DNA of 63,796 nucleotides, filler included, from Collodictyon triciliatum (taxonomy: Eukaryota), in the NCBI GenBank assembly GCA_043381765.1. It is 6 parts of 6 records of this genome, joined end to end, with 100 filler letters (N's around TTAATTAATTAA, not from the genome) between each part and the next. Parts side by side here need not be neighbours in the genome. Positions count along the whole stretch, not along the records: positions 10,434 to 26,309 come from JBHJMP010000772.1; 5 more parts are not named here. The stretch is one strand, 5' to 3'. The number at the start of each line of letters is the position of its first letter. Position 1 is the stretch's first letter. Under the pieces are notes generated by a model, which did not search any database, had not been told where the DNA came from, and saw only the letters and a program-made list of their open reading frames with translations. The translations under genes and the position numbers were made by a program. Shown piece by piece: positions 8,106-62,718 of the stretch.

Positions 8106-10015
8106 GGGAGGGTTCGGCCCAGCCATACCAAAAGCAGCCGCCCAGACTAATGCGGCATGAGTGCAGGACATCGTCGGCCTTGGGCTTGCGGTCTTCTTTG
8201 GGTACGGACTGCACCGCGAGATCGGGCCGCCCGCGTATGTGTCCGAGGCGCTCAACCAACGGTGGCTGGAGTACGTGGGGACGACCGATCCGCAGTGGTT
8301 CTTTACGCTGACGATCTGGGGCTCCCTCACCCTCACGTGCCTGCTCTTCACCACCCCGTACATGCTTCTCGACATGCTGCACCTCCTCGGCTACCCGCTG
8401 CTGAGCCAGTACAAGCTGCAGAAGGTACCGGCATTTCGACCATTAGAGAGCCCAAGCCTCTGCTTGCAAGCGGTTTCTTGGCTGGCCCCTGCGTTCCCGG
8501 ATAATTGCTGTTGCTTGCTTGCTTGTTGTTGGGATGTGCCTTTTCTCCCTCTCTCTCTCTTTCTCTCCCCCATGGCAAAGAACAGAAGCGTGGGTTTCGT
8601 GCTTATCGTTTTCTCTCTTCTATATCCTTGTATCATATCTAGAGACGTCCCAAGTGGTCCGATATATGGAGCTGCTTCAAGGCCATCGTCCTGGTCTACA
8701 TCGCCATTTTTATCATGACCTACACTTCATTTCCTGTGTACTCTTTCTGCGGGGTATACGCGAACGCGCCCATTCCGACTTGGTGAGCGAAATCACGCAC
8801 CTCTATATCTACGATTGTACATGATGTCTTGCCATGGTATGGAAGGCACCTGATCTACTCGCAAAAGCGTCCGCAACTCTACGCCACAACAACGACAGCT
8901 TCATGACTAAATACAGCTGTGTATTTTTACGTGTGACGTGTGTCATTCAGGGGACGCATTGGCTCTGAGTTGCTTCTCTTCCTCTTCATCGAAGACCTGG
9001 GCCACTTCATCCTTCACTGGATATTCCACGTGGAGCCCTTCTACAAATGGATTCACTCTGTCCACCATCAACACACATATCCATTTGGCCTGACAGGTAC
9101 ACGCTCATGCCTCTGCGCACCATAAGTTTGTTGTGGAAGACACATGCCAATGTCCATGCGAGTAATACTGCTCTCCGTCCCTCACACAATTAACACTTCT
9201 CTTTTGTCCCAACCTATGCAAAGCCACGTACTCGCACCCCATCGAGGTTATCACCCTTGGAATCCCCACAATGATTGGCCCGTCCCTCGTGGGCTCGCAT
9301 CTCTTCACCTTCATCCTCTGGACTAATCTTCGCCAGTGGGACGCCATCGAGACTCGTAATCACACATTCTTCGTCAAATAGCATATAGACATCTATCGTA
9401 TTCCTGACACACAATTGCTAATGGCCAAACTAATGCGGGTTTCTAGATTCCGGATACGAATTCCCATGGAGTTTGTCGAAATGGATTCCACTATGGGGAG
9501 GTTACTCCAACACCCATTCACCCAAAGACATCATACCTTACTCGAGACATAAACTTTGAAGAGATGACCTTACATATGATTCTGGCTCATCTAAATAGTC
9601 GTTATCATAATGTAGGCGCTGAATTTCACGACGCCCACCACGCATTCAAAACCTCCAATTACGCCTCCTCATTCACCTACTTGGACACGCTCTTCGGCAC
9701 GGATGCCTCCTACCGCCGACGCAAGGAGAAGAGTGAATCAGAAAACAGCCAGGTTAGCTCATCAGGGTCTTTCCTATCTCATAGTTACTAATATTCGCGC
9801 CCTTTATAATACCTACGGTGAGAATCCCCTGCGCTGAAATATTATTTCTATGACAGACACAGTCCCAGGAATCTCCCTCTGTTGAGTCACCTGCCAAATC
9901 CCCTGCCAAGTCACCTGCAAAGTCACCTGCAAAGTCACCTGCCAAATCTCCCTCAACTCCTGCAAGCGATGCCAAGAAGGCATCCAACCCCAAACGTAAT
10001 AAAGTGATTCAATAG
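7849..10015 (+). CDS. ERG25: C-4 methylsterol oxidase (SMO/ERG25/MSMO1-type, sterol desaturase/fatty acid hydroxylase superfamily)
   Basis: Three His boxes HWIFH, HSVHH and HDAHH, with flanking motifs YKWIHSVHHQHTYPFGLTATYSHPIE, AIETHSGYEFPWS and NYASSFTYLDTLFGTD. Eight GT-AG exons; ends PKRNKVIQ-TAG. Confidence 0.88.
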
Positions 10016-10333: not shown

Positions 10334-10433
10334 NNNNNNNNNNNNNNNNNNNNNNNNNNNNNNNNNNNNNNNNNNNNTTAATTAATTAANNNNNNNNNNN
10401 NNNNNNNNNNNNNNNNNNNNNNNNNNNNNNNNN
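10334..10433. other. Artificial contig spacer (N44-TTAATTAATTAA-N44)
   Basis: Identical 100-nt unit with stops in all six frames occurs five times in the window. Confidence 0.97.
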
Positions 10434-10571
10434 AACACAAAAAACAAAAAAAACACAAAAAAAACAAAAAACACAAAAAACACAAAAAACACAAAAAACA
10501 CAAAAAACACAAAAAACACAAACAAAAACAAAAAAAAAAGAACTGGGTTTAGATAAACAGTAACTAGGCCC

Positions 10572-16971
<6,400 letters not shown>

Positions 16972-17159
16972 ACTAGCTTTTTTTTTCTTGTATAAAGCAA
17001 ATTAAAAATAATGGATGTAATGTCTGCAATGCGACGAAATCATTTGTTTATTAAACCTGTCATTTTGGGCCACGCACACCTAAACATCATCCTAATCCCC
17101 ACTCAACAAATGTAAGAACTGGATTGGAAAACATTTGTTGAAAAGGCAAACACAACTTG

Positions 17160-17992
17160 GACACAAATACAAAATTGAAAACATAAATATAAATACAAAA
17201 TTGAAAACATAGACATAAACACAAAAATGAAAAATAGATGTAATACAAAATTGAATGACATAAATATAAACACAAAATTGAAAACATAAATATAAACACA
17301 AAAATGAAAAATAGATATAAATAAATGCAAAATTGAAAACATAGATATAAACACAAAATTGAATAGCATAGAAATAAACAAAATATTAAAAAAAATATAT
17401 ACACAAGATCGAAAAATATAGATGTAAGCACAAAATGAAAAACATAGATTAAACACAAATGAAAAACATAGATAAAAGCACAAAATGAAAAAACATAGAT
17501 TAAACACAAACGAAAAACATAGATATAAATACAAGATTGAAAAACATATATACAAACACAAAATTGAAAACATAGATATAAACACAAATTGAAAAAATAT
17601 AAACACAAAATGAAAAAAATGGATGTTAACACAAATGAAAAACATAGATATAAACACAAAAATGAAAAAAATATACAAACACAAAATTGAAAACATTAGT
17701 GTAAACACAAAATGAAAAACATATATACAAACACAAAATTGAAAACATTAGTGTAAACACAAATTAAAAAACATAGATATAAACACAAATGAAAAACATA
17801 GATTAAACACAAAATTGAATAGCATAGAAATAAACACAAAATTGAAAAACATATATACAAACACAAAATTGAAAACATTAGTGTAAACACAAAATGAAAA
17901 ACATAGATATAAACACAAAATTGAAGGAAATATAAGCACAAAATGAAAAACATAGATTAAACACAAAATTGAAGGAAATAGATGCAATACAA
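17160..17992. repeat. Degenerate ~24-28-bp minisatellite, consensus about AAACACAAAATTGAAAACATAGATAT, roughly 30 copies
   Basis: Recurring ACACAAAA(T)TGAAAA core with variable tails (CATAGATAT, CATAGATT, CATTAGTGT, CATATATAC, TAGCATAGAAAT). Strongly A-rich on the + strand. Confidence 0.9.
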
Positions 17993-18042
17993 TATTTATA
18001 ATAGTATTTATTATATCATTGAATCTGCTCCATAAACAGGAA

Positions 18043-18114
18043 GCGGGTGTAGCTCAGTGGTAGAGCGTTCGACTGCAGATCGAATGGTCGCCGGTTCAAT
18101 TCCGGTCGCTCGCT
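18043..18114 (+). tRNA. trnC-GCA: tRNA-Cys (anticodon GCA), intronless
   Basis: Acceptor stem GCGGGTG/CGCTCGC, A box TAGCTCAGTGGTAGAGC, anticodon arm TTCGA-CTGCAGA-TCGAA, B box GGTTCAATTCC, discriminator T. Confidence 0.97.
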
Positions 18115-18119
18115 TTTTT
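18114..18119 (+). terminator. RNA polymerase III oligo-T terminator
   Basis: TTTTTT immediately after the tRNA acceptor stem. Confidence 0.8.
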
Positions 18120-18412
18120 GTCTGCCTCGCGCTCGAGTCTGTTTTCTTTTTTAACACTTTATTCGATTCCTGTCTTTTTTTTTATCTTTCTATTTTTTTC
18201 TTTTTTCTTTTCTCTCATTTTGCGCCCACGACGCAGTCCTTCTTTCCTTGGTTCTCTCCACGGCTTTTGTCCCGCTTCTCAAGTGATCGATCTCCTGTCG
18301 GCGCCACACAAAGGATGGAAAAGAATCGCTGTTGGGCAGTGTCTCCTTACACACAGGGATATCTGCGGCCATACGCACACAATAACTAATGAGTTGGTCG
18401 ACTCCAAGAAAT

Positions 18413-18527
18413 AAACAAACAAACAAACAAACAAACAAACAAACAAACAAACAAACAAACAAACAAACAAACAAACAAACAAACAAACAAACAAACAAAC
18501 AAACAAACAAACAAACAAACAAACAAA
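18413..18527. repeat. (AAAC)n microsatellite
   Basis: Directly visible, intergenic. Confidence 0.95.
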
Positions 18528-18668
18528 GAGCAAAAAAGAAAAAGAAAAAAAGGTTAAAAAAAAGTCGACGTTGATGCAAAATACAACTACCTGGAACGGC
18601 TTATTGAATGCACACTGACTGAAAAAAAAATATACAACTTTGATATCTGTCCTCCAAGCCTATTCGCC

Positions 18669-20176
18669 ATGCAGCTGAAGTGGCCCCAAATCAATTGGCG
18701 CATCTATGTGGATCGTCTCGTTCGACCGTACTACATACTCAACATGCTACTGATTCTGTTCTACGTGCTTGTTCGTGAGTTTGAATTGTCTCCACAGTCC
18801 GTTATCTTCAGGGAGGACGACTATGGGATGCAGCGGGTAAGTCCAATAAACAGATGGTTAAATGAATAGATAATTCTGTGGCATCTTTGATTGCCTGTGA
18901 ACATTGTTCTGCAACATATCTTATTTCATGCAGTGTTGTTCATCACACTGAAACTTTTCTTTTTTTAGCCTGTTGGATCATATTCTCTTCATATGCACGA
19001 TATGTCTGTGTCTGTGAATCAAGTCGCTCAACACGACTTAATTGATGAAATAGGAACAACAAGTTTTGTTTTGCGCCCTTGTCATTACCGGAAGGAAAGC
19101 CATGCGCATGTCTTCCATCGAAGCCTTCCTTGGCTCCTTTTTTCTTTATGCGAAGGCATCCATCTCAGTTCTGCTTTTCCTGGCTGATGGTCTCCTATGT
19201 GCTACGTTTGTGACTCTTGCCTTCTGTACGTGAATACATGACTCAATACTTTTCTTTCAAGATGATAATATAAAATTAGATCTAGTGGGGAAAAAAATCA
19301 TTTGTTGATATTATATCATATAAGTCGGAGAAGAAAAATTGATATCGTTGTATACACCACCTCAAAGTAAGTATGGTAGTAATGATTTATAGATAAGATT
19401 TATATAAAAATACACTACAGTTCTTCATGTGTTGTGTCCACAGCCTGATTACAAAGGCCCCAGTGCATACCAATTCGTCAATGAGATTACTCTGAACGAC
19501 CTGCTCAAAAAGACAAGGAACCCTGTGATTGTCACATTTTTCACCACTTGGTCACCTCCCTGCATCCACACTGCTCCAATATTTGCTGATATTTCAATTG
19601 AGTAATACAGCTACCAGCGAATTGTTAAATCTATCATTGAATTTAACGGAAATATTCAAAAGAAAAACATCTTTTTCCCAACAGAAAGAACCAAAGAAAC
19701 CCCCACTGTTATAAATCCCATATTCTTTTCTTTTCTAGATACAAACAGGTAGCAACTTTTGCCAAAGTTGATGTTGGTCGCTATCCTTCCGTTGCAAAGA
19801 AGTACAATATAAATACAGATGGAACGTCCCGCCAACTTCCGACAATAATAAAGTTTGTCGCTGGACAAGAAGTTTCCCGCATTCCGAATATTCCTGAATC
19901 CGGTATAGATAACCGAGTCATCAATAAGGTAAACTCTGTCCTAATAATATCTGCACTTTCCGCAATCTTATTTTTTATTTTATTTCTTCATATGCTCTCT
20001 GACCATCATGAACAATCACTGATCTCCTGGAATAATCCTCTTCACAATAAATTAACATTGATGCATTCGAATTTTATCAGCAAAATATTGTCGATGCTTT
20101 TGAATTGCATGGCCTACTCGACTCTGGGGAAAAGAAAGCACCTAAAAGTGAAACAAAAAAGACAAAGAAAGAATAA
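18669..20176 (+). CDS. TMX2: Thioredoxin-related transmembrane protein 2
   Basis: Five exons: N-terminal PYYILN hydrophobic segment, QPDYKGP after the TM region, non-canonical site FFTTWSPPC (SxxC), KVDVGRYP, SRQLPTII, and a C-terminal dilysine-type tail KKTKKE-TAA. Confidence 0.9.
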
Positions 20177-20488
20177 ATAGATTAATGAATTCTATCTGCA
20201 AATCCAACAGCCTTTTTCTCGCTCTGCCAAATAAAGCACAGAAGCCACTGCCGAACGATATGTTTGTTCAGAACTCATGGAACGCTTGACAAACTTATCA
20301 TCGAACGCAAAATGTGGTGATTCAATATATCTTAAAAATGCCGATCCCTAAGAAAAAGAAAAGGGGAGGAAAAAAAAAAGAAAGAAAAAAAATAGAGACG
20401 CTATGAAAAGGCAAATGGTATGTGTTTTATTGAATACAATTATGGAAATCAAGCTATGGTCGCGGCATCTAGAAATTGGTTCGTTAAG

Positions 20489-23400
20489 CTACTCAAGTTC
20501 ATGTGCTAATCCAACTGTGGGATAATCGCTCATATTCGGCACTTGGGAGATAGATTTCGGGTCGTCAGGATTGCTTTTGTCCGTCACCCACTCGATGTGT
20601 TTGATGTAATGACCCCACACATCAAACTTTTCAGTAATACGATACAGATTGTGAGGCCTTCTCCAACCTTCGAATTCACCCATACATTGAATTTCCATCC
20701 TTTCATGTTCTACCAACAGCCCTTTGATGCTCTCCGTTATCTATCAAGGCATTATCAGCAATATACCAGAGCACTATGTTAACATGTACGGTTTAAGAAA
20801 AAATCTCGTACAAGTATATCCCCATTATTGAATTCTCTTGTTGTCTGCAATCCATTCCAAACTGCGTTGAGGATTAGTTGATTAGTACTTTCATGAGTAA
20901 TTAACAGACGGATTCAAAGTTCGGCACATGTATAAATAGATATGAAACCCGCAGCCCCGAAACAATCGCAAAGCAGCATTCGACTCCCTATATTCGTTGT
21001 GGTTGGGGTCACCTTAGAATATATAACCAACGCAAACATATAAGTGTAGAAGTAAATATTCTCATATTATGTCTACCCGTCAGTCCGTGCCATGTCCATC
21101 CATAATCAACAGATATTGTCGACTTGATTGAAAACTCGGTATTTCCATAGTTCATGTGGTCCATGATAGTTTGAACCTTCATGTTGGATTTTTTTTTCTC
21201 TTTTAAAAAACATACTTTGGCGATATCACATGTTCACAGAAATAAATATGTGAATATTGAATAAAATCACATAGAATACCTGGAAACAATATCCAATCAC
21301 TTTTTTCAATATTTCTTGAATCCTATCGTCTCTATGAGTTCCCGTCGTTGTCGGTACTATCTTTAATACATGAAAAATATGCGTGTTCAAATTAATGAAT
21401 TACAATAAATGAAGGCCAATCTTTACTTTATTGAAATACATTTATAAAAGACGCATATCAATCATCGTGTTCCAGTGTCATACAATCATGCTGGTTCCTG
21501 TTGACTTTGCTATTTCCATCTCATATGCCTTTGAGGCATTCTCCATTAACTTGATGTATTCTACTCATTATTTTTTTTTAATAAATCATTTTAGTTTTTG
21601 GCTTCCTTATCACTTATAAATAGAATTCGACGCTTCTTTAAAACTAACCTGATATTGTCCGATAGTTCTCTTGTATGTTCTTCTGATACTTTTTCGCAAA
21701 GTCGAAATGAAAGTTCACAACTACCACAAACATGTCCTTGATCAGATTCGTTGGAGATGAGTCTCTTCTCTGTATATTTTCATACATCGAGCTGCCCAGT
21801 GTTGATATAAGTGCGACCTCGTTTCTCTTGTTATCATCGATTAATTGCAAAATGCCCTATTTGAATCGAATATGTTAGCTTTAACAATCTAAAATGTTTC
21901 GTAAACGTCAAAGTTTCAAACACTTGTCAGTTAGGACTTACGGATTTCAGTCTCTTTTCATCCAGATACTCTGTTCTTGAGGCTGTGTCTCTTGAAGCAC
22001 TGATAAAATAAAAGAAGAATGTCGGAAATGTGAACAGCGTTATGCCATAAAGTATTCCATACGAACCCGTCCTATTATAAATAAATAGGAGTTGCTTAAT
22101 AACCAAAAGTTGACCTATTGGGAAGAAAAAAATAATCCAACATCTTTACAAAAACTACCCATGCATCTTTACTTACAATTTTGTAGCAAAAACCGTAGTT
22201 ATAGTGCTTGCAGATATGAGCCATAGGACAAGATAAAAAAGGATTTGTATAGCTGGGATAACTACACAGGACACCATATATATAATGGCCTCATATATTT
22301 CGGAGTATAAAAACAGGTAATGGCTCCATTTTACTGAACAACCGAACCCATAACCAGAAAGGACGAATATAATTCGTGTAAGACTGCTGATTCCGTAAGC
22401 TGCTCCAATGAAAGATGGTATTCTCCAGCAGTCGTACGTTGATGTTTTGTTTTTATCATCGTTGAACACAATAAATAGGCTCATTAATGTAAATGTCACA
22501 CAGAAGACGAATACTCTGACAAATAAAAGCCAGTTCTGTGATTCCCGAAAGGATTGGCACTCCGAAAGTATTCCATAGTCTACGTACCCAAAAGCAAAAC
22601 AGCTTGCTATTGTTGCGAATGTTTGAATCCTACATCAATTCAGACGATAGAACACTTCAGGAAGGAATATACTATTTTAATTATTGCATCATATGGATTT
22701 TTTTGTCATTTTCTATGTCTTTTTCTGTTAATTCGAATTTCGTTAACATGTGATTTTTTGATTTATTTTACGTAGAATCCCTTATTTCATAATAAAAGAA
22801 CTTGCCCGAGTATACGCTTGTTCATATGTGTTTTCATGCTACTTTGAAAGAGTATTTCTTCATCTCTCTCGAATCGAAGGTCCCCCAAATAAGCCATCAT
22901 CCCTCTTTTCTTTTTTGCCTGCTGAAACGGGCTCTTTCGATCTTCAATCTGTATGCATAATAAAACAATATGAAGAAAAATAAGGTATTTTCTCTGCGTA
23001 GACGCTATTTTATGCACACTATTCATTTTCTTTTATTCGATCCAAAGATGTTATGTACGTCAATTACCAGAGAATCCAAGATGTCGCATTCGTTATTTTT
23101 GTCTGTATTGAATTTCCCACCGTTTATATGCGACTTTATTCCATTCATATAGTGTGTTTCCAACTGTTTCTCGTTATCGATGCATCGAAATACATATAAA
23201 ATACTTTTTGCGTCCTTTACTCCTGGTAGCTCCTCAAAAAAGGACAGATTATTCTATTCGTATGCATATAGGCGATAGTCAATAACATTGTGTGATGTCT
23301 CCAATATGGAGCGATTCAATGTCTATGATATTACTGTTGTGTCTCCTCTCTCCAGATGGCTGTCTCTCCAATATGCGTTTGTGACAATGTTCCATTCATT

Positions 23401-25964
23401 TGCAGCATCTGCCAATCTCATCGAAGAGCTTAGTCCTGATCAAAATAATTCAATGTTACATGTATTTCTGACAATTTATACATGTATTACGCATACAGTA
23501 AAGTATAGATCCAAACCATCTCCAATTACTTCAAACGTTACTTTCGAGTATTCTAGCAACCCGCCCGACACTGCACCGTTTCCCACTCCAATCTTTATAA
23601 ATGCCTGTGATTGATAGATTTCATATATCTCTTCGCTTATGTATTTTTATTTCATTTGTCAAAAGATATTCTTCCCTAAGTAAGCGTATTAAACCCTTGG
23701 ATTACCTCACTAGTCTGTAATTGTATGCATGCCTTTAAAACAGTCTCTGCTACTTCCAAAAAATCACAGATGTTTTCTCCAAATAAGCCGCTAACAAACT
23801 ATGATCGAGCCACAAATGTCAAATTGTTCAATCTAGATTGTCGTTGAAAACTATCCTATCCTTACCACAGTGCATGCACCTGTGGTTGTGAATATGTGAT
23901 TTAGTGGTGTGCAAAAAAAAAAAAACTTTATTTCGACATTACATGTAAGATTTAAAAAAAATACCCAACGTCCCAGCCTTGTGTAACCCTTTCCTATTGC
24001 AAAATTTGATTGGAATCATCACATATGGTTTTTTGTCTTCAAAAAAATAGGAAATACATTACCGTTCGCACTCCAAGGATACACATCTATAGATATGAGA
24101 AATGTTAAAATAGAATCTTTATCAAGCAACCATAGTCATATTTAAATAGACTACTCATATAGCTCGTCCATTTCTCTCAGTATGGATGGCTTGTCAAGTA
24201 TTGCGTCACTCTTTGCTTGAATTGAGACACACAACACTGCACAGTTACTGTTTTCATAGAATGGGATAATCTTTGATTGCGCCAGGATTGACCTCATCAC
24301 CGGTCTGTGAATTCGATTTTTGTTCATTTCAGCCGTTTATTTAAAACATGAAAATTTTATCGAGTTATTGGAAAGGAATCGATGGAAAATAAGCAAATAC
24401 AACCGCCTTACATAGGATAGAGGTTCGATAGCAAAAACTTTGTGTGATTTCTTCTTTTTACAGCAGATTTCTGGACAATTTTTAGTTTCTCTCTGGCGTA
24501 AAAGGAACTATATGGGAATCAGATAAATTATATCATCATATATTCACACATAGAGTATCTGGAATGTAATTACTTTCTCTTCTGCACTTGAACGGTTTTC
24601 ATCACTGTGGTGCTTATTATTGAAGAAGTAATAACCGGGAACATGCATCGGAAAATAATCTTCATGTCCAAACACAATAAAAATCGAAGGATAGCAAATA
24701 AAGTTATATTTCCAAGTGCTGTAATAATTTTCTGCAGACGATAATCACCAGGGATGACAACGGTGAATACCTATTTAGAAAAATAAAAGATGAGAAAAGA
24801 AAAGCGAAATTTCAAGATATATTTCCTCTTATTTGACCGAGTGTATTATATAAATTTTCATTACAAAAATTATGAACTGGAACTCAGAAAATATGGAGTC
24901 GGGGTTGATGAAGAGTACGATTGTAAACGACATTGTGAGAACGAGGTAAAACCATGCGTTGACCAGAAAGTATACCCTGGGGTATGATGCATAACTGATT
25001 TCATTAATGAGTATATCATTTTGTGCATATCGGAAAGAAATACCTTGACAGAGAGTGAATTTTGTTTTCATTTTTCATCCCGTTTCTCAGGTAGCTGTAG
25101 GCGGTACCAAATACGAAGCAGAAAAATGAAATATGACCGTAATATACTATCCATAAAAACTCGTATCCGATACTAAGAGAGGTAATGCGTCAGTGTTATT
25201 GGTCATTAGGGTTGAAAAAAATACTTTTTTTGTGAAGTGTAGCATTCCGGTTATATAATGGATAAATATTACGAATAATATAATGCGTATGCGGCATATA
25301 AAAGGCCGACTACACAGAATATGACCGTTGTGCCGACAAAATCCATTGCAATATGGACGATATATCCTTTTTCTAAGTTGTCGTCTCTGAACCTGCACAT
25401 TCACAAAGACAAAATAGAATTACACCTTTCTCAGGAGGGAACACAGCTTTGGCTATTTCAAAGTCAACAAAATCGCTGAATAATCTGCATGCAAAGGGAT
25501 GTTTGATTTTCAAAGAAAAGGATATAACGTTTATAATGAAGCAAACGATACATTGTGAAAGAGTGAAGTTAATATACTGATGTATTTTACTCAGAAGGTA
25601 TTTGCGTTTCAAAGTACCTTAGCGTTCTTTTGTTAATTATAGGGGAGGGAAAGGTTTCCTCCTCATGTTCATTCATCTGCAGCTGTTCCATTATGTGTCT
25701 TAAATCCGCCCCTTGGTTCCCGTTGTCAACGCGTGTCCGATGGGTCTCTTTTTCATCTGCTTCGCTACCCTGCCTCTCTCTTGACTGGTTGTGATCCACT
25801 TGCTTGACTCTCATCCGAAGGTATTGTCCATACCTCTTTGAGGTGGCATACTTGGTAGAACCGAGCGACGAGCCAGATGACCCGATGCTTTCGACCTCAT
25901 GCTTTGTCGATCTTGTGTGGTGACTATTCTTGCGATCACTTTGGAGGCCGTCAAAGCCTTCCAT
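20489..25964 (-). CDS. Membrane adenylyl/guanylyl-cyclase-like protein, paralogue B (TM-C1-TM-C2 layout, both domains degenerate)
   Basis: Spliced C1: FLLSNLYPIPV...CAVLCVSIQAKS...KGLHKAGTLGACTVFVSGL...IKIGVGNGAVSGGLLEYSKVTFEVIGDGLSSSMRLAD, collinear with the class III consensus. Second TM block at about 22000-23030. C2: FVVVVNFHFDF...EIAKSTGTSMI...CDCFGAAVWNG...ILITESIKGLL...MGEFEGWRRPHNLYRI. The 3' end may extend to an exon near 20190-20348. Confidence 0.75.
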
Positions 25965-26309
25965 TTCTCCCAGCCTTCAACCTTTGCCTGACTCCGAAGA
26001 TTTTGGTCAGTCTTTCTTGGAATGAGTGGATTTTGTGTGCGTGTTGGTTTGTTGCCTGTTTGTTTTTTGTTTTTTGGGCTGGTATTTTCGTCCTGTGCTG
26101 CGATCGACATTCAAACTTTAATACCTCCGTTATAAAACGTGCCATAATTATCGTTTTGTTTCGTTATACGCTCCATATGTGGTTTTTGTGGTTTTTTATG
26201 GGTTTTTATGGTTTTTTATGGTTTTTTTATGGTTTTTTATGGTTTTTTATGGTTTTTTTATGGTTTTTTTATGGTTTTTTATGGTTTTTTATGGTTTTTT
26301 ATGGTTTTT

Positions 26310-26409
26310 NNNNNNNNNNNNNNNNNNNNNNNNNNNNNNNNNNNNNNNNNNNNTTAATTAATTAANNNNNNNNNNNNNNNNNNNNNNNNNNNNNNNNNNN
26401 NNNNNNNNN
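26310..26409. other. Artificial contig spacer
   Basis: N44-TTAATTAATTAA-N44. Confidence 0.97.
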
Positions 26410-29352: not shown

Positions 29353-32300
29353 GCTGCTTCGTTTCAGAAGATCCGTGTTGAAAACCCGGTGGTGGAGTTG
29401 GATGGTGACGAAATGACCAGGTGTTTGGACTTGCGCATGGCCGATATTGACTGTCTCGTTTATTTTACATCCGGTTATTTTTTTGGAGTCGTCGAACATT
29501 TTTTTATATGCAAGTTGAACTTTTGCTGATATTCCCTTTTTTTATTTTCTTTTTTAACTGGTCAGAATCATCTGGAAAATGATCAAGGACAAGGTATCGT
29601 GTCCATGCGCCCTTATAAATGCCTCCTCTTTTTTTTCTTCAATCCTGACCTGTACAATATTTTCTCCTTGCATCAAGATAATATATCACTGTTTAATAAT
29701 AATTAACTGATGGTTATCCCCGTATATCACTGCATCAACATCACAGCTTGTTCTTCCGTATCTTGACATCGACATCAAGTACTATGATTTGGGACTTCCT
29801 TATCGCGACCAAACCAACGACCAGGTCACCGTGGATGCTGCAAACGCAATCAAAAAGTACAACGTAGGAATCAAATGTGCCACAATCACGCCTGACGAGC
29901 AGCGGGTCAAAGGTTAGATGGCGACGAACTCTTCTTGCCTCCACACCACGATATACTCATCGAATATATATTGTATGCATCTTTTTACAATCCCTTTTTT
30001 TTTTCAGATTTTTTTTTTTTGGACTTTGCTCCCTGTCAGTTTTTAAAGGGAAGCATCCCGATGAAAGTAAAGTACTGTTGTTCATCATTTTGAAAGAGTT
30101 TCCTTATGTTGTCAACTAGAGTTTTCTTTGAAGAAAATGTGGCCGAGTCCAAACGGAACCATCCGCAACATTCTCGGTGGGACTGTATTCCGTGAGCCCA
30201 TAGTCTGCAAAAACGTCCCACGCTTGGTTGCAGGTATCAATATTAGATTCGGGAATCACATATTCGAAGTTATCGCGAATCTTTACATCTGTCAGAAATA
30301 CGTGTTGCTCTCTTTTTAATAAGTATGGTCTATCTTTAAAGTCACGTCCTCTTATCATTCATTTAAAAAAATGATGTAAAACAAACATTTTCTAATATTT
30401 ACATGTATATGTCAGGATGGAAGAAACCCATCATCATCGGTCGACATGCCTTTGGAGATCAGGTACTTAAAATCATAAAGCCCTTACTTCCCACAAAAAA
30501 AAAAAACGAGTCAACAATTCTATGTCCTCACATTGAGTATTTTTATATAAATGTGATTTGAATGAAACTCTAGTACAAAGCCACTGATTTGGTCATTCCT
30601 GGTGCTGGAACCCTTGAACTCGTCTATACGCCGAAAGGTATGCCTTTCAAAAGACACCAGTATGCCTATTTGCCGTGCTAATCTTTACGTTCCTTTCATC
30701 TTCAATCTAAATACCTCATTCCCTTGACCGTCTACTAAATCTTCCTTTCAAAACGGCTTTAGATGCAAGCCAACCAAAAAAAACCATCAAGGTCTTTGAC
30801 TACCCTGGTGCTGGTGTCGCAACGTCTCAGTACAATCTGGAGCAGGTGAGTAAAATGAATGATCACTCGTTTTCTCTTCTGTTTCTCTCCACATTATCCT
30901 CCTTTGAATTTTCATGTGTATTCAACCACCCAATGAATCGATATTTTTCTCCTTCTTCGATACCCTAGTCTATTCGCGATTTTGCCCACTCCTGCTTCAA
31001 CTACGCCATCGCGCGTAAAAACCCGCTCTATTTCAGCACTAAAGTAATCTTCCAATGTTTTGTTTATTATTTGTGGAAATATTACGTAAAAGAATGATGC
31101 GCTATGCAACAAAAAAAAAGCATGTCTTGAATAATGACACGAATATATCCGTTGATGGTATACATATTTCTACTCATCTTTTCATTTTATAAAAATAATA
31201 AACATCGACAGAACACAATTCTGAAGGCCTATGATGGACGCTTCAAGGATATATTTGAGGAAATTTATCAGTAAATCACCCATTAAAAATATGACTTTTT
31301 TTCACTTTCGATTATTTGTCGCCGAAACCCTCATTCGCTTACGGTCATAAAACAAAGGGATTACAAAGACCAATTCAAAGCTGCTGGTATATGGTATGAG
31401 CATCGCCTCATCGATGACCAGGTAGTTTACATATCGATGCGTCTCGTCTCATAACCTTTTTTATTGCCCATATATTATATTTATTTTCTCTTCGATCTTT
31501 TTGTCTGTCTGTTAAAATATGGTTTTCGGCTGACCATGAATTTCTAGAGAAGAAAATGAAAGTATTGAGAGTATATCAAATGTTCAGGTCGCACAAACCG
31601 TCAAGTCTGATGGAGGATTTATCTGGGCATGCAAAAACTACGACGGTGATGTCATGTCTGACCTGGTCGCCCAAGGTTAAATCTCTGCAAAAACAAAAGT
31701 TGTCGCTATTTTTGTCCGCGCGCGCTCAATTAGCAATCAAGTATGTTTGTAAACTTTGTTCTGAGGTACTCTTTGCGTTTGAGAATAGGATTTGGTTCTC
31801 TGGGAATGATGACTAGTGTCCTCGTATGTCCTGATGGCAAAACTATCGAATCAGAGGCTGCTCACGGCACAGTTACAAGACACTTTAGACAGCATCAACA
31901 AGGCAAAGAGACCAGGTTCGTATCTTCTGCATAGGGTTGCTGTTTTGAGGCTTGGGCCATCTTTTTCTTTTTCTCTCTTTTTTTTTTCTTCTCTTTCACA
32001 AATGAAGTTTAGAAATGAAAGTAGTTCCAAAGGCGGCTGCACTCCATCATAACGCCACTTTGCGGACACACATATCTATTAAATCATTTTCTGAAATTGT
32101 CCAGCACAAACTCAATTGCAAGCATCTTCGCATGGACTCGTGGGCTGGCCCACCGTGCAAAACTCGACAAGAATGAAGCGCTTGCTCGCTTTGCCTCCGG
32201 TAGAGCGTTTTAACATGAGTAACTCGCGTTTTATTACCCTCAGAAATGTTCATATCATATCGTATCATATCACAAAGCCATCGAAGAAGCCTGCATCGAA

Positions 32301-32859: not shown

Positions 32860-34263
32860 ACACGCTCTGGCGGCTCCTCGTTCCAATCAGATACCACACA
32901 AATCTGTCGCAATCAATCATTAGATGCGTAACTCAAAGAGACACGCTGTTCGCATAAGATAGAATCATACGTTGTGGTGAGATGCGCAAAATAAACAAAA
33001 CAAAAAAAAATACCATGTTCCTTGACAGGTCAATCGTTTCCAATCTATGGGCGAACAAAAGGCATCGCGGGAAATGTCGAAACTGCTCGACACAAAGGCA
33101 ATTCATGAATTTAGAAAACATGTTGCAGAGTTTGAAGGAGCCTTGTGAATGAAAAAGAAAAAAAAAGAGGAAACATGAACCACTCTAGTACGAATCGCGT
33201 TTGCTGCTCCTTCACCATAATAAAAATACATGAAAGAACAATTACTCTGTTGTTGCTTATGTCAATGATTCGTAGATTTTGTAAAATAGTAAACGACGCC
33301 GGCAGTGTGGATATCTGTTGAAAACCTCAATATTACATGTGCCAGCTACGTGTGTAACGTGGAGCAAAAGAAAACAACCTTGTTTGACGACAAGTCTAGA
33401 GAATCAATAATCTCCCAGCTGGGTATTAGACTGGACACATCAGCGATGCTTTTGTTTGCAAGAATTACATCGTAGAGCTCCAACGTCCTCAGCACTTTTG
33501 CTATCGGCTGGAAGCGACAGCCGTATCTCTGGTGGTTCTCCCAGCATGGCAAGGTAGATATGCCGCGGGGAAGTCGTTTCACATAAGCATGCCCGAATAG
33601 CTCGATATTCAACTCAAACAAACTGGAAAGGCACGTGAGTCCCTGTGGCAACGACTTCAGCTACGAAAAATGAAAAAAAAAATCAATCATGGTTGAGTGA
33701 GTAAATAGTCCTTTGGCAATCTATAAAAACATGTATAGACTGACGAGCCATTTCTTCCATTATATTGATAAAAAAAATTAATGACGTTGGAAGTGTCTCT
33801 ATTTCACCTTATTTTCCCACAGACTCAAGGTTCTGAGCTTCTGAAAAACCGAGATGGAATCTGGGATGGTTGATATGTCGTTATGGCTGATGCATAATGT
33901 CTCCAAGTTTTTCAACGTAAACACGATTTCCGGGACAGTAGACAGCCTGTTGTTTCCGATGTCGAGTTCGGCCAGGTCGGCCAGAAGAGATAGATGAAGC
34001 GGCAAAGACGTGATTGCGTTGTATCCAAGGAGGAGTGTCCTCAGGTTTGTTAGGGCAGATATCTCATCCGGGATTGAGGCAAACATCCTGGACTCCCAAT
34101 TAATCTCGCACAGCTCGTTCCCCTGGGCTGTCATGGCAGATGTCCCTGATGCTTGTGCTTTCTGCAGCGTGTGTGACTCAGACTCGTGATCCGGCGCAAA
34201 CGGCGGGTGGAGGCTCAGTCGCTTTCTTTTTCGATTTGCTGCTGTCTCGCACTTCTCGGCCAT
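32860..34263 (-). CDS. Leucine-rich repeat protein (SHOC2/IRL-type repeats)
   Basis: MAEKCETAANRKRKR..., LRTLLLGYNAITSLP, LDIGNNRLSTVP, LSLWENK|LKSLP, LDLSSNK|ISTLP, IDISNNR|FRHFP, IDLSRNM. 3' end uncertain. Confidence 0.8.
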
Positions 34264-34568
34264 CGATGCGCTCTGGGCTGGAAACAAGGGCGAGCGGGCT
34301 GACTATGATGCCTTGCCTGCGCATATAAGAGTCTCATTTAGTGATGCCTGCCTCGTCTGGCAAATGATGGGCCCCTTCCGCGTTGTCGCATGTTGCAGCT
34401 CTCGCTCAGCCCTGTCAAGTTCTCTTCCTGAGAAAAAGACTTTGTGCAGTGGAGTTTCCGATCGATCGGTTTGCTTTTTCTTGTGGGGGTTGCGATGTCG
34501 GGCAAGTTCGTGCATGATACTTTTTTTTTTTTTTTTTTTTTTCTTTTTATTTTTTTACAAGGGTTGGG

Positions 34569-34668
34569 NNNNNNNNNNNNNNNNNNNNNNNNNNNNNNNN
34601 NNNNNNNNNNNNTTAATTAATTAANNNNNNNNNNNNNNNNNNNNNNNNNNNNNNNNNNNNNNNNNNNN
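34569..34668. other. Artificial contig spacer
   Basis: N44-TTAATTAATTAA-N44. Confidence 0.97.
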
Positions 34669-34710: not shown

Positions 34711-37700
34711 GTTACATATGCCTTCTTGGCGCATTTCAATCCAATCCTCAGGATAAAGTTACAGGGTATATTTGTCCAAAGGGGTTCTTTTGTCCACGGG
34801 GAGCGGAAAGTCCATCACCTTGCCCTAAAGGTTCCATGCATATAAATTGAGCATTCATGTACTTGAATATCAATTGCTATCCCGTTTAAATCACCTTGAA
34901 TGCTTAAGTAAAGTCTTCAAATTCTTGAAATCATGTCATTTTAACACCTCGAATTTAGGCACATACGGAAGTTCTGAGGGTCTAAGAGAGAAATCAGATT
35001 GTACCCCATGTGATAGTGGATTCTACTGCCCATATTTGAATGCAACTATGGCAGAGTTATTATGTAGCGAAGGTTTCTATTGCCCGATAGGTAATATTCA
35101 AAGAGAAAGGATTCCCATTATTTCGAAAAGTATTCTAACATCCTTACGTTTTCCCATCATACCGGTTTGTATTTGATTGACACGCTTGTTGATACATAAT
35201 TTCTCAAAATTTGACACTTTGTGAAACAGGCCAGTCCGTTAGCAATCCTATACAGTACATATGCCCAGCAGGCCATATATGTCCTGAAGGTTCATCTTCA
35301 CCTACTCTATGCCCAGAGGGCAATTATGTGAACAAAGCCGGACAGGTGTTACAGTCAAACCACATTTACATGCATAGATTTAACTTACGCTAATTCACAT
35401 TATATATAAGCTGCATTATTCAACATAATTTCTTTCTTCATTGAATCAAACAAAGAAAAAAATCACCATTGATTTCTTCAAGCTATTAGATATGCTAAAA
35501 TCGTCCAAAATACTTAGTCCAAAATGATCAAATGTCCTCCTGGCTACTATTGTCCGAATGGAACATCTCTTCCCACACCATGTCAAGAGGGCTTTTATTG
35601 CCCCGCAGGTTCAGCGTACCCGACCAAATGTCCGGCTGGGACTTACCAAAACTCTGTGAACGCCACAGATATTCTGAGTTGTTTGAGCTGCCCAAGTTTT
35701 TTTTCTTCACTATTTAAAATCATAACTTTTAAAAGACATTTATCCAACCCGAATATAACTGAAACACAATTTTTTTTTCTGTGCCAGCACATATTCAGAA
35801 GCATAATACTCTTATTTGATGAAAATAGTTGGGTACTACTGTGATTCCGTTGGGTTGACAGAGCCTAGCGGGAAATGCGCTGCTGGGTACTTTTGCAATG
35901 GAGGGGCAACATCACCCCTTGCAAAGTTGAACAGTACATCTAGTCCAAATTATTGTCCTATTGGCCATTATTGTGAGGAAGGGACTGTTAAACCACTTCC
36001 TTGCCCCATTGGGACATTTAACCCATCCCTGGGCGCCACCAGCATTGGAAACTGTCTTCCATGCCTTCCTGGGAGCTACTGTTCCTCCCAAGGACTGTCA
36101 AAGGTTTCAGGTTGGGGAAAATATTACGATTCGTACTGATATTCTCATTTTTTTATTTTATTGTTGAACAATTCACGTTTTTGAAAGGTAAAAAATCATC
36201 AAACTAAAGCCTAATAGTATCGTGAATTTAACGTATTTTCACCTCGGTAAGACTCCTTGGAATGTAGAGGAGCTCAGGGCATATTATTTACCAGATTCCT
36301 TTTGACTAATAATTGTTTACTATCAATGTCGAAATTGATTAGGCTTCTGCAACCCCGGATTTTTCTGCCTAGAAGGTTCCACTCGTTCTGTTCCTCCATC
36401 TGTAGAATTTGGGTACTATGCAAATCATAGCCTCTATATTTCCAGTGACCCGACATAATTATAATAATTATGCTGGGACCATTGAGCGTAAAACACATTT
36501 GGTTTTTATGAGAATTTTTTTTTTTAGAATAAAAAATTAATAAATCACCTCCCGTATCCATACTTACAGGGATATTTGTCCGCCTGGGTATTATTGTCCG
36601 CTTGGTACTGTTAATGCAACGTCCTTCCCTTGTCCTGCAGGGACATATTCTTCCAAAAATGGTTCGGTAGGAATTCAGGACTGCACACCGTGCCCATCAA
36701 AACAGTATTGCAACATAGGTTCATCAGCACCTACGGGTCGCTGCGATGCTGGATTCTTTTGCAAACTTGGTAGTCCAAGCAATAAGCCTTCAATTTTTGT
36801 TATTGGGATGCACGGGCCTTGTCCTGATGGAATGTTCTGTCCTCCAGCCACGGATGATCCCATTCCCTGTGCTGCGGGGTTGTACTGCAACAGTTCTACT
36901 GTAATAGGGAAATGCGACGCGGGATATTACTGCACCGGGGGCGCAATTGACGCTCAGGCGTCGTTAATCGACGGCACTGGAGGCCCGTGCCCAGAAGGCC
37001 ATTTCTGTCCTTTGGGATCAGTGGAGCCGACACCTTGCCCTGTTGGCACATACTCAACATCACAACGCAACACCCAAGAATCTGACTGCGTCCCTTGTCC
37101 GATGGGATTTGTGTGTCCAAAACCTGGAATCGAAAACTGTACTCAACTGTGCGACCCTGGTTACTACTGTCCTGAGGGGTCCTCAGTTGGTAATCCATAC
37201 ATATGTCCAAAGGGGTCCTATTGCCCACCCGGATCAGGAAGCCCGCACTATTGCCCTCCTGGAACCTTCTCAAACATCACTGGATTACATATCTGCGAAC
37301 CATGTCCCGCAGGCATGACATGCTTTCAAAATGGTACGATAGAGCCTGACTTATGTCCTAAAGGGTTCTATTGTACCTTGGGAGGGTCAAACCTAACCTC
37401 CCTTATTCTTCCATGCCCAGCTGGCCGCTACTCAGACATACTAGGTCTGAAAAGTCCGGACCAGTGCAAGCCGTGTCCTAGATACCATTATTGCCTAGAA
37501 GGCTCGTCATCACCAACTGGCCCATGTTCTGCAGGGTTCCATTGTGTACTTGGAGCCTCTACAAGCCAGCCTACGGACGGTATCACGGGTAATATATGCC
37601 AACCTGGTTCATACTGTCCATCCGGTTCGTCTCCAGTCCCCTGCCCTGAGGGCACATTTAATTTTAATTATGGGGCCACATCTGAGGAGGTCTGTCTATT

Positions 37701-40700
37701 GTGCCCCCCGGGTAAATACTGTGCACCATCCACCGGCTTCGCTTCATCAATTCAATCATGCAGTGGCGGATACATTTGTACGGGTGGATCTTCAGTTCCC
37801 GAGCCAGTGGATGAGACTGGCTACATGTGCCCCATAGGCTCTTTCTGTCGCTCTGGAGATCCAAACAGCAGACGATGCAACCCTGGTTCATATAGCTCCA
37901 GTGTTGGTCAGGCTAACTGCACTTACTGTGATGCAGGATATGCCTGCCCAACTTTTGGTACAACTTTTCCGTTTGTGTGTCCCATGGGTTATTATTGCCC
38001 TTCTGGAACATCACAACCCCTACCATGTCCACCTGGTACATTTAGCTTCTCAACTAGTTTGCAAAGTGATCTCGATTGTACTCCTTGTCCCAGCGGCAGA
38101 TATTGTTCAGGCTTTGGTCAAAGAATCCCCTCAGGGCTATGTGATGCTGGATACATCTGCACCAAGAACTCCAACTCACGCAAGCCACTAAACGATAAAA
38201 ATAATAATGGAATGTGTCCTGTAGGCCATTACTGCCCACGAGGTACAATCGCACCAATACCTTGCCCAATAGGAACTATCTTGTCTTTTGTTGGGGCAAC
38301 GTCCAAGAGTCAATGTGAGCCATGTCCTGCCGGTCATTATTGCTCCAGCCCTGGCATAAGTAAACCCACTGCGCCATGTGATGCGGGATTCTATTGTCCG
38401 TTTAACTTTAACAGTACCACGCCAACGCCATCATGGTTAGTGTGTCCTACCGGATCCAAATGTCCTGCGGGGTCATCGAGCCCGATCCCGTGCCCTCAGG
38501 GTCAATACCAAGATAGACCCCAGCAACCCAATTGCAAGGACTGCCCTCAAGGACACATTTGTCCCCAGCAGGCATCCACAATTTCATTGTGCCCACGAGG
38601 ATCTTATTGCACAGATAAATCTGCTTATCCTATACCATGTCCTGAAGGTACTTACGGAAACAAACCCGGATTGACTTCAGCGTCTCAGTGTCTTCCTTGC
38701 CCAATCGGTATCTTTTGTAACGACGGGATTTTAGATGAGTCTAATCTTTGCTTCGCTGGATTCTATTGTCATATCTCTAGTTTCTCTCCAACACCTGAGC
38801 AAGGTGCTGGCGATTTGTTAAACGGGCCTTGCCCATTGAATTTTTATTGCGAGTCTGGAACGAAATCACCCATACCATGTCCACCAAACTATACCACCAA
38901 ATTTACTGGGGCATCTACTTCCACCATGTGTGTGTTATGCCCAGATGGGACTTCTTGCTCTTCTTCTGGTAACATTCCATGCCCAGCAGGACATTACTGC
39001 TTAAAAGGAGAGGCTCCAACACCATGTCCGCCAGGAACATATTCTGAACATACAGGCCAGCACCTGGTAAACACATGCGTTTCTTGTCAAGAGGGAAAAT
39101 GGTGTGCTTCTGGTTCAGCCTCTCAAGAACCATGTCCTGTTGGTTATTTTTGCCCGGCAGGAACAACAGCGCCCATTCCGTGTCCTGGTGGAACGTTTTC
39201 TGATTTACAAGGCCAGTCTTCCAACGACAGTTGCAGGGTGTGTGTAGGGGGATACTACTGCCCTATGGGATCATCGGCGCAATATGATTGCCCTCCAGGA
39301 TTCTATTGCCCCAGACAGTCTACATTTCCAATACCGTGCCTTCCAGGGATGTTGTGCCCTCTTAGGTCAGAGGCTCAAAAAACATGCCATGCTGGCTCCT
39401 ATTGCCCTCCAAACTTGTTAGCCACTTATCCTTGCCCTGATATTAATTCATGCCCGCAACCCCCGTTCACAATTGCAAATTGCCCATCCAACACGGTCTG
39501 CCACATGTCTGCAAAAACAACCCAGCTTGATTGTCCAAATGGGAACTACTGCCCTCCGGAATCACCCTATCCGATTTTATGTCCGCTTGGTTACATGGCA
39601 AAGCCAGGTTCCAAGCACCAGACCTTGTCCGACGCGTGTTCACTCTGCCCCGAGGGGACCTATGGTGCTGACCCGAAGCGAATGGAATGCAAGGAATGCG
39701 ACCCCGGATATGTTTGCCTTCCTGGAGCAAAAACGGCAAGGCCCAATTCTCCTGAAGAGGGAGGATATCCTTGCCCCAGGGGCTTCTATTGCATGAAATC
39801 ACCAGGAGATACAAAAGTACGTGAGCACCCGTGTCCTACAGGAACATTCAGTTCCATATTGGGTGGAAACTCGCCCAGTACCTGTCAACAGTGTCCCAGA
39901 GACTCTTACAACCCGATGGAGGGCCAGTCTAAATGTCTGCTGTGTGGACCAACATCTTTCCCGACAAATGGTTCGACAACGTGTGAATGCTTCGGACAAC
40001 ACAGAGTTTTCCAACAAAGTGATTCTACATGTCTTTGTGCCGCCGGATATGAATATTATAATAGCTTATTAGAGCTTGAAAATACGGACAATATGGGCGA
40101 CTGTCAAAAAATAATATACCAAGCCTGTACAAACGGTCTTATACGAGCTGCAAATGGAGAATGTTTTTCAGATGAAATACAGTTTTGCTCGAAAAAGTGT
40201 CAAGGTGAGAGTTTTACTTTTGTACCCGAAAGTGGAACCTGCGCCTGTTCATCTCAAACTTACGATGATGTTTGTGACGAAGCATGTAAGGCTTCATCAA
40301 ATTCGTTCTATCTAGACGCTGGTTCCAACTCGATCATTGTCCAGGGCTCGAATGGACTTGTCGGGACTTTGTCACTGCAGAATACCACAACCTCATTTTT
40401 CAGTGTAGCATCATGCAAGACAAATTGCGCTCTGCAAATACTAGAGATGAGCGGAAATGGATTTTCTGGAATATATAACGCTACCATAGATTACATTCAG
40501 GGTTTATTGAACGATGATAGCAAATCAAGGTATTTTCTTTCGAGTTCCGATAGAGCTTCAAGATCTCTTGTTGACTCATTCGCTAAAGTTCAGGACCCTA
40601 TCATATGTCTGGAGCAAGGGGCTTCCTTATTTTTCGATCTGAGTATTGGAGGTGATCATTACCCTGAGTACCAGGTGAACTCTAAGCTAAATACAAATCC

Positions 40701-62618: not shown

Positions 62619-62718
62619 NNNNNNNNNNNNNNNNNNNNNNNNNNNNNNNNNNNNNNNNNNNNTTAATTAATTAANNNNNNNNNNNNNNNNNNNNNNNNNN
62701 NNNNNNNNNNNNNNNNNN
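62619..62718. other. Artificial contig spacer
   Basis: N44-TTAATTAATTAA-N44. Confidence 0.97.

Follow-up and report, generated by a model that had tools for sequence, protein, structure and literature searches.

A gene on the minus strand of the DNA analysed here, a stretch of 63,796 nucleotides (nt; the window) joined from six parts of the genome assembly of Collodictyon triciliatum, raises the question of whether this protist has retained a membrane-bound class III cyclase in which both cyclase homology domains, C1 and C2, have lost their catalytic residues. A preliminary description had placed an apparent double pseudo-cyclase at 20489–24500. Our analysis established the gene, the splicing of its 3′ end, two cyclase homology domains, a membrane layout and non-canonical residues at the catalytic positions. 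We put at about 60% the probability that the encoded protein is a pseudoenzyme of the twelve-helix cyclase architecture, transcribed and intact, which is unable to cyclise ATP or GTP by the two-metal-ion route and most likely serves as a non-catalytic regulator or receptor.

The splice model was obtained by dynamic programming, with scores given to codon usage, to simple features of the donor and acceptor sites and to the length of introns, and was then curated by hand. It comprises 24 exons at 20489–25400 on the minus strand, with 949 codons plus a stop codon and 23 GT-AG introns of 47–144 nt, and the frame remains open from 25400 down to the stop codon at 20489–20491. The coordinates assigned previously include C1, the second membrane cassette and C2, but contain only 20 of the 24 modelled exons. 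Upstream of 24500 come the start codon and the first membrane cassette, and the gene reaches at least 25400. The claim that the frame is intact over about 20 exons was borne out, the 3′ end being both transcribed and spliced. Further upstream lies a hydrophilic open frame of 129 codons found in the open reading frame (ORF) list (25590–25976, minus strand). The model linked it to the gene at an intron penalty of −3, the weakest used, but at none of −6 or stronger, and it may be either a longer cytoplasmic N-terminus or a separate gene, the modelled N-terminus being a minimum. The gene sits wholly on the piece at 10434–26309, and the local composition around it is ~35% G+C.

Expression was examined in the only public sequencing run that shared words with the locus (X1; 1/20 of the sampled words), which is weak evidence, as the RNA label of the run is a guess. 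A spliced X1 contig of 446 nt covers 20418–20740, 20812–20861 and 20949–20988, and its intron ends read CT..AC on the plus strand. This single contig covers the final four exons of the gene, and the run covers only 20418–20988 of the locus. The 3′ untranslated region (20418–20488) falls within the stretch 20418–20740 covered by contig record 1 of X1. The contig joint 20740/20812 defines intron 23 (20741–20811), and the joint 20861/20949 defines intron 22 (20862–20948), which interrupts the C2 motif FGAA-VWNGLQT after FGAA. For intron 21 (20988–21076), the loose contig end beyond 20988 fits an exon end near 21078; the letters before this match are presumably a SMART-type template-switch adaptor. 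The contig differs from the window by one base, ACG to ACA, which is synonymous. The results identify the locus as a genuine gene of many exons that is transcribed and whose 3′ end is spliced.

The reference domains used to assess cyclase homology, which are recognised by Pfam's own model, were 10 domains from the pSymA plasmid, 80 relatives from bacterial genomes, 30 domains from five additional genomes, including Turneriella domains that score 166–210 bits against PF00211, and 120 proteins from a homologue search with a class IIIa-like domain. Four profiles were assembled independently, and all of them matched the spliced protein at the same order along the chain. A profile of seven rhizobial domains gave E 3.3e-5 (9.3 bits), one of 87 bacterial domains E 1.6e-7, and one of five class IIIa-like Turneriella domains E 8.9e-9, with 16.4 bits for C1. 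A non-redundant profile of 50 domains gave 39.9 bits (E 1.7e-14 for one target) and recognised two domains, aligned at residues 252–367 in C1 and 743–901 in C2. Within the full protein, hmmsearch scored C1 (residues ~232–370; seven exons, 23371–24258, minus strand) at 16.1–16.4 bits and C2 (residues ~715–901; seven exons, 20636–21757, minus strand) at 21.5 bits.

As isolated segments, C1 scored 21.6 and C2 26.7 bits, and neither score was reached by any of 500 shuffles; in a separate control, the observed score was reached in 0 of 300. The control segments of the same protein (TM1, C1b and TM2) scored −1.8 bits or less against the cyclase-domain profile, and the bulk of the cyclase-profile score derives from exon interiors. 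As a positive control, a nine-domain rhizobial profile (A1), from which the seven-domain set was drawn, found 70 solved class III cyclases, among them the Rv1625c-type entries 4p2f and 7yz9. It matched AC5, AC8 and AC9 in two stretches each with 107–127 bits, compared with the 9.3 bits of the protist protein against the related seven-domain profile. Judged from these profiles, the predicted protein is a true but extremely divergent two-domain class III cyclase homologue, as had been claimed for both domains.

The order along the chain is six helices, C1, a linker of 125 residues, five to six helices, C2 and a tail of 48 residues, the helices being taken from a Kyte-Doolittle scan with a 19-residue window and, for the first cassette, peaks of at least 1.5. 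The first membrane cassette (24627–25337, minus strand) contains six hydrophobic helices at residues 22–171. The second (22002–22606, minus strand; residues ~495–661), which includes a large exon at 22177–22606, shows five clear hydrophobic peaks and a weak first helix. This weak helix depends on a tentative 18-nt micro-exon (22654–22671, minus strand) that bridges to the large membrane exon and is predicted by the splice model only; no alternative frame-keeping join was found in its place. The two halves are separated by a C1b-like linker of two exons (22816–23253, minus strand), for which the cyclase-domain profile gave −2.6 bits and in whose ORFs Pfam recognised no domain.

The linker exon between helix 6 and C1 (24412–24492, minus strand) reads …LLSNLYP…, and …LISTLGSS… precedes C2. 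Judged by eye against the ILP…VA segment that precedes bacterial class IIIa domains and against the SxL/MP core, both resemble a transducing element; neither was aligned by any profile. According to a published account, this core stands before C1 in the transducing element, or helical domain, of membrane adenylyl cyclases, which carry two six-helix cassettes, each with a cyclase domain, in one chain (PMC9552081). The layout found here is that of the twelve-helix pseudoheterodimeric membrane adenylyl cyclase architecture.

Class III cyclases work by a two-metal-ion mechanism. In the animal active site, C1 supplies a pair of Asp residues, and C2 supplies Lys, Asp, Asn, Arg and a Lys of the beta-hairpin. 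Both this mechanism and the part played by each residue are established (attributed to Tesmer et al. 1999). All six peptides on which the preliminary description was built were recovered, both in minus-strand stop-to-stop ORFs within 20489–24500 and in the spliced model. Those of C1 are CAVLCVSIQAKS (residues 237–248), KAGTLGACTV (279–288) and GDGLSSSMRL (347–356), and those of C2 are VVVVNFHFDF (725–734), KSTGTSMI (769–776) and FGAAVWNGLQT (846–856). Five of the six took the consensus positions named for them in the profile alignment; VVVVNFHFDF could not be placed convincingly, as described below.

The residues of both domains were read against column counts from the 50 reference cyclase domains, in which the catalytic columns are 98–100% conserved. 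The first metal Asp (D in 49/50 references) is replaced by Ser243 in C1 (24223–24225, by register test and column counts) and is ambiguous in C2. The second (D in 50/50) is Ala285 in C1, carried by a 14-nt micro-exon reading …ACTV (23866–23879, by splice prediction and profile alignment), and Thr773 in C2. The base-recognition Lys (K in 49/50) is Gly281 in C1 and kept as Lys769 in C2, and at the base-specificity position (T in 26, D in 20) C1 has Glu344 and C2 keeps Asp844. The Asn column (N in 49/50) holds Ser351 and Trp851, respectively. The Arg column (R in 49/50) is kept in C1 as Arg355 and is Gln855 in C2, leaving the Asn/Arg pair incomplete in both domains. The Lys or Arg of the beta-hairpin (K or R in 44/50) is unaligned in C1 and Glu890 in C2. 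The profile alignment places Ser351 and Arg355 at 23416–23430, Lys769 and Thr773 at 21493–21507, Glu890 at 20669–20671, and Asp844, Trp851 and Gln855 at 20845–20967, a span that contains the contig-confirmed intron 22; all of these positions are on the minus strand.

The local profile alignments stop short of strand beta-1, and every ungapped register of this strand was scored instead. For C1, one register reached +9.2 bits, against −2.8 bits or less for each of the 16 others tested; it aligns Ser243 with the first Asp column and is the register proposed earlier for C1. For the C2 strand (VVVVNFHFD, 21701–21727, minus strand), the registers with Val726 (+1.2 bits), Phe730 (−0.1 bits), Asp733 (−3.9 bits) and Asn729 (−5.3 bits) at the metal column were all unconvincing, including the Phe730 choice of the preliminary description. 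The Asp of FHFDF, which had been named as a residue that could overturn the proposal, is disfavoured by this score and may still be the first metal site of C2; even if the Asp733 register is right, Thr773 remains at the second.

As regards Ala285, once the flanking exon ends are fixed, the only micro-exons that keep the frame are 23879–23869 and 23879–23866, both of which encode Ala, whereas genomic read-through at this site gives Ile. Conserved non-catalytic columns were kept at 7 of the 11 aligned in C1 and at 7 of 12 in C2, with most structural glycines retained, whereas only one of five catalytic columns was kept in each domain (Arg in C1, Lys in C2). Thus, since the structural columns are mostly kept and the catalytic ones replaced, the loss is concentrated on the chemistry.

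At the animal-type active site of the protein, the residues are Ser, Ala / Lys, Asp, Trp, Gln, Glu; those at the second, pseudo-symmetric site are (V/F/N/D), Thr / Gly, Glu, Ser, Arg. As aligned, neither possible active site is complete, and neither domain has the Asp pair, in agreement with the earlier claim: C1 has Ser243 and Ala285, and C2 has Thr773 and a first site that could not be placed. Because residues of the two-metal-ion mechanism are replaced at both sites, neither would be expected to be catalytic. We infer that cyclase activity was lost and that the protein acts as a non-catalytic regulator, scaffold or receptor. In such a pseudoenzyme, C1 and C2 would still pair within the molecule, and the membrane cassettes would retain their dimerisation or sensing. 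The protein would act on partners of active cyclases from other loci of the genome, by modulating, scaffolding or titrating them. The residue pair for adenine recognition, Lys769/Asp844, may allow nucleotide binding without turnover.

Several observations weigh against the proposal of a dead but functional cyclase homologue. The catalytic residues may have migrated to other positions. Among the 23 introns of the model, 20 are predictions, the final three being backed by the transcript contig, and the training exons of the splice model were picked with cyclase motifs in mind, which may have inflated the scores slightly. Ala285 is encoded by a predicted micro-exon, and the first metal residue of C2 could be V, F, N or D, one poor register giving Asp733. 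When the 21 ORFs of the locus were scanned with Pfam as single unspliced exons (E<=1), PF00211 was found in none; this match had been suggested as a check on the gene, and what could be obtained instead was the match of the spliced protein to our profiles made from PF00211-positive domains. A PDB sequence search with two C2 exons returned chance matches only (E 0.55 and 1.4), and one C1 exon and one C2 exon gave no usable match in the ESM Atlas. Since single exons match nothing, the cyclase homology rests on the spliced model. Finally, the known relatives of the protein, described below, cover one membrane exon and not the cyclase domains, leaving selection on these domains unsupported.

The relatives were found in an exhaustive representative search with the stop-free membrane exon of 153 codons, which gave four matches. 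One (P0001) is the same membrane exon at 99% identity, and two (P0002, 36%; P0004, 27% identity) are exon-sized ORFs; all three lie on contigs of ~1 kb from environmental assemblies. The fourth match was a repeat protein and was discarded as spurious. The three relatives share 19 invariant columns, and the second membrane cassette is for this reason considered conserved in at least two other organisms. A word-index homologue search with the 153-residue exon against longer proteins gave no match, and a metagenome scan with the alignment of the relatives produced 596 pattern matches, none of which was confirmed. In the homologue search from the class IIIa-like domain, the best 120 proteins listed were almost only bacterial. 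The one two-domain protein from EukProt among them, a transcript product of 744 residues (P0018), has two class IIIa-like cyclase domains, each with canonical residues wherever it could be aligned. Should its source be a related protist, P0018 would serve well as an active reference.

The gene might be the first known of a family of twelve-helix pseudo-cyclases conserved among protists, in which catalysis was lost while the Lys769/Asp844 pair and the second cassette were kept. Members of such a family might be receptors for a nucleotide or a membrane ligand, or obligatory non-catalytic subunits that set the activity or location of active cyclases. We regard this extended proposal, which goes beyond a single non-catalytic protein, as tentative and somewhat unlikely.

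A second possibility is that the protein is still a working cyclase, which uses non-canonical or migrated residues, or whose C2 acts in trans with an Asp-bearing domain of another chain. C2 keeps Lys769 and Asp844, C1 keeps Arg355, and in one register of C2 the first metal column falls on Asp733. Moreover, bacterial class III monomers are described as inactive alone and completed by a partner chain (PMC9552081). Such activity is nevertheless improbable in view of the replacement of residues that are 98–100% conserved: the second Asp by Ala in C1 and Thr in C2, the Asn by Ser and Trp, and the Arg of C2 by Gln. Activity in trans would have to do without the Asn, Arg and hairpin Lys of C2 (Trp851, Gln855 and Glu890), and no partner cyclase was detected within the window.

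It is also conceivable that the gene is decaying, either as a transcribed pseudogene or as a recently inactivated cyclase without a function of its own. The wholesale loss of catalytic residues, a divergence so great that Pfam misses every exon, and expression known from one contig of one small run would all fit such a history. On the other hand, one frame is open through 24 exons with GT-AG at every border, and the 153-codon exon has relatives at 27–36% identity that share the invariant columns with it. The structural glycines are mostly kept in both domains while the catalytic residues are gone, and the sole difference between transcript and genome is synonymous. Decay is rather improbable as well. 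It is very unlikely that a normal C1 and C2 are hidden by a faulty gene model, i.e. by other exons or assembly errors, since, despite the many predicted introns, a frame that needs two micro-exons (14 and 18 nt) and a window stitched from contigs with gaps, Ser243, Ser351, Arg355, Lys769 and Thr773 lie inside exons and away from junctions, the junction beside Trp851/Gln855 is confirmed by the transcript contig, the second-Asp site of C1 gives Ala with both frame-keeping micro-exons and Ile on read-through, and no other cyclase-like exon was found in the window by profile search.

The preliminary description had further assumed a paralogue and, together with it, an undescribed signalling system. 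No paralogue was detected in the window: a tblastn search of the remaining window with the spliced protein had a best E of 0.94, and the cyclase-domain profile, run against 2086 window ORFs of at least 18 residues, found only the gene's own exon at 23479–23646 (E 0.34). The Pfam scan of 130 + 150 ORFs of at least 60 residues (1–20 kb and 25.6–61.3 kb) contained no PF00211. The sensitivity of these searches at the level of exons is low, only one of the gene's own cyclase-domain exons being recovered, and an equally degenerate copy could escape. A leucine-rich-repeat gene at 10706–15582 (plus strand), with exons interleaved with long hydrophobic frames (12191–12850 and 13573–14484), may be a membrane receptor gene and could be what was taken for the related gene; no cyclase-like exon was found in its region. 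Further leucine-rich-repeat exons lie at 33802–34302 (minus strand). The claim of an undescribed signalling system goes beyond the evidence, which concerns one divergent member of a well-known architecture.

The closest comparison is with the animal membrane adenylyl cyclases AC1–9, which have the same domain order of six helices, linker, C1, long linker, six helices, linker and C2 (PMC9552081). In these enzymes as in the protist protein, each of the two halves is a class III cyclase homology domain. The modelled N-terminus of the protist protein is very short by comparison. The C2 domain of animal membrane adenylyl cyclases lacks the Asp pair and keeps the base-recognising Lys and Asp, and the protist C2 likewise keeps these two residues. 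Unlike the animal enzymes, however, the protist protein lacks both metal Asp residues in C1, and the Asn, Arg and hairpin Lys in C2. As a result of these losses in the two domains, the single active site of the animal type is missing.

Bacterial class IIIa cyclases, hexahelical or soluble (for example the Turneriella domains L092–L109 and the Rv1625c type), were the reference type that best matched C1, with the 16.4 bits given above, and share with the protist protein a linker resembling ILP…VA upstream of the domain, as judged by eye. They are single-domain homodimers with a full catalytic set, whereas the protist protein has two fused domains, both degenerate.

It is well known that one of two paired cyclase domains can be degenerate, and in soluble guanylyl cyclase alpha/beta, a degenerate domain is paired with a partner cyclase domain. 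An incomplete cyclase domain retained for pairing is likewise described for the chytrid NeoR/rhodopsin-guanylyl-cyclase pairs (PMC8815786, PMC12264004). The NeoR pairs and soluble guanylyl cyclase keep one competent site, whereas the protist chain keeps neither. Non-catalytic proteins derived from cyclases can have effects in the cell: the truncated AC3-AT is reported to have such effects (PMC11971047), and cyclic AMP (cAMP)-independent pathways are mentioned for a catalytically inactive AC6 mutant (PMC5540275). AC3-AT is an isoform and the AC6 mutant is engineered, both from active enzymes, whereas the protist protein appears to be separately encoded and naturally degenerate.

Cyclase domains together with many membrane helices also occur in the P4-ATPase-guanylate cyclase fusions of alveolates and stramenopiles, according to two reports (PMC13466520, PMC6592433). 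These fusions are active and carry an N-terminal P-type ATPase, whereas the protist gene has no such match upstream: Pfam found no P-type ATPase in ORFs of at least 60 residues at 25.6–29.5 kb, and the contig piece ends at 26309. Since no P-type ATPase lies upstream, the gene is not an ATPase-cyclase fusion of the alveolate type. In the literature searched, which included few subscription journals, no two-domain protein with twelve helices and two dead sites was found to be described. What is new would be this variant, with two cyclase domains, twelve helices and both predicted sites dead; the architecture itself is known.

The window contained further features that do not bear on the cyclase-like gene. 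The junctions between its parts (10334–10433, 26310–26409, 34569–34668, 56407–56506 and 62619–62718) each consist of 44 N, TTAATTAATTAA and 44 N, the central element being a linker with stops in six frames, of the type used for contig concatenation, and five more gaps of 100 N each lie inside simple-sequence repeats. Because the window is stitched from separate contigs, gene order across the linkers is no evidence of linkage. The neighbour of the cyclase-like gene at 19.4–20.2 kb (plus strand) is a thioredoxin-like gene. A V-ATPase subunit a gene of at least 10 exons occupies 56777–61022 (plus strand); the best match of one of its exons is a EukProt transcript with 67% identity. Since this conserved exon peaks at 67%, the organism is seemingly a protist to which nothing sequenced in these collections is closely related.

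At 36544–45045 (plus strand), a single frame of 2834 codons encodes cysteine-rich repeats of the Ephrin_rec_like type, with further exons at 35518–36136; the product resembles a giant protein of the secreted or surface type, and the G+C content of the stretch is 42–49%, compared with the ~35% around the cyclase-like gene. Housekeeping exons of a cytochrome P450, a fatty acid hydroxylase and an isocitrate/isopropylmalate dehydrogenase were found at 3764–4126 (minus strand), 8937–9788 (plus strand) and 29711–31931 (plus strand).

Membrane adenylyl cyclases have been studied almost entirely as producers of cAMP. If the protein is indeed the non-catalytic regulator or receptor proposed here, this naturally occurring, expressed member, dead at both sites, would demonstrate that the architecture can persist for a non-catalytic use, and would offer a clean system for studying the roles of the membrane cassettes and of the C1–C2 interface. 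Roles of the twelve-helix anchors and the paired domains beyond cAMP synthesis are under debate (PMC9552081). A conserved family, if there is one, would be a natural experiment in which the role of the membrane anchor as a receptor is parted from cAMP synthesis. In divergent protists, counts of cyclases made by domain searches can err in both directions, as such a gene may be missed when its exons are searched singly and miscounted as an enzyme once it has been found.

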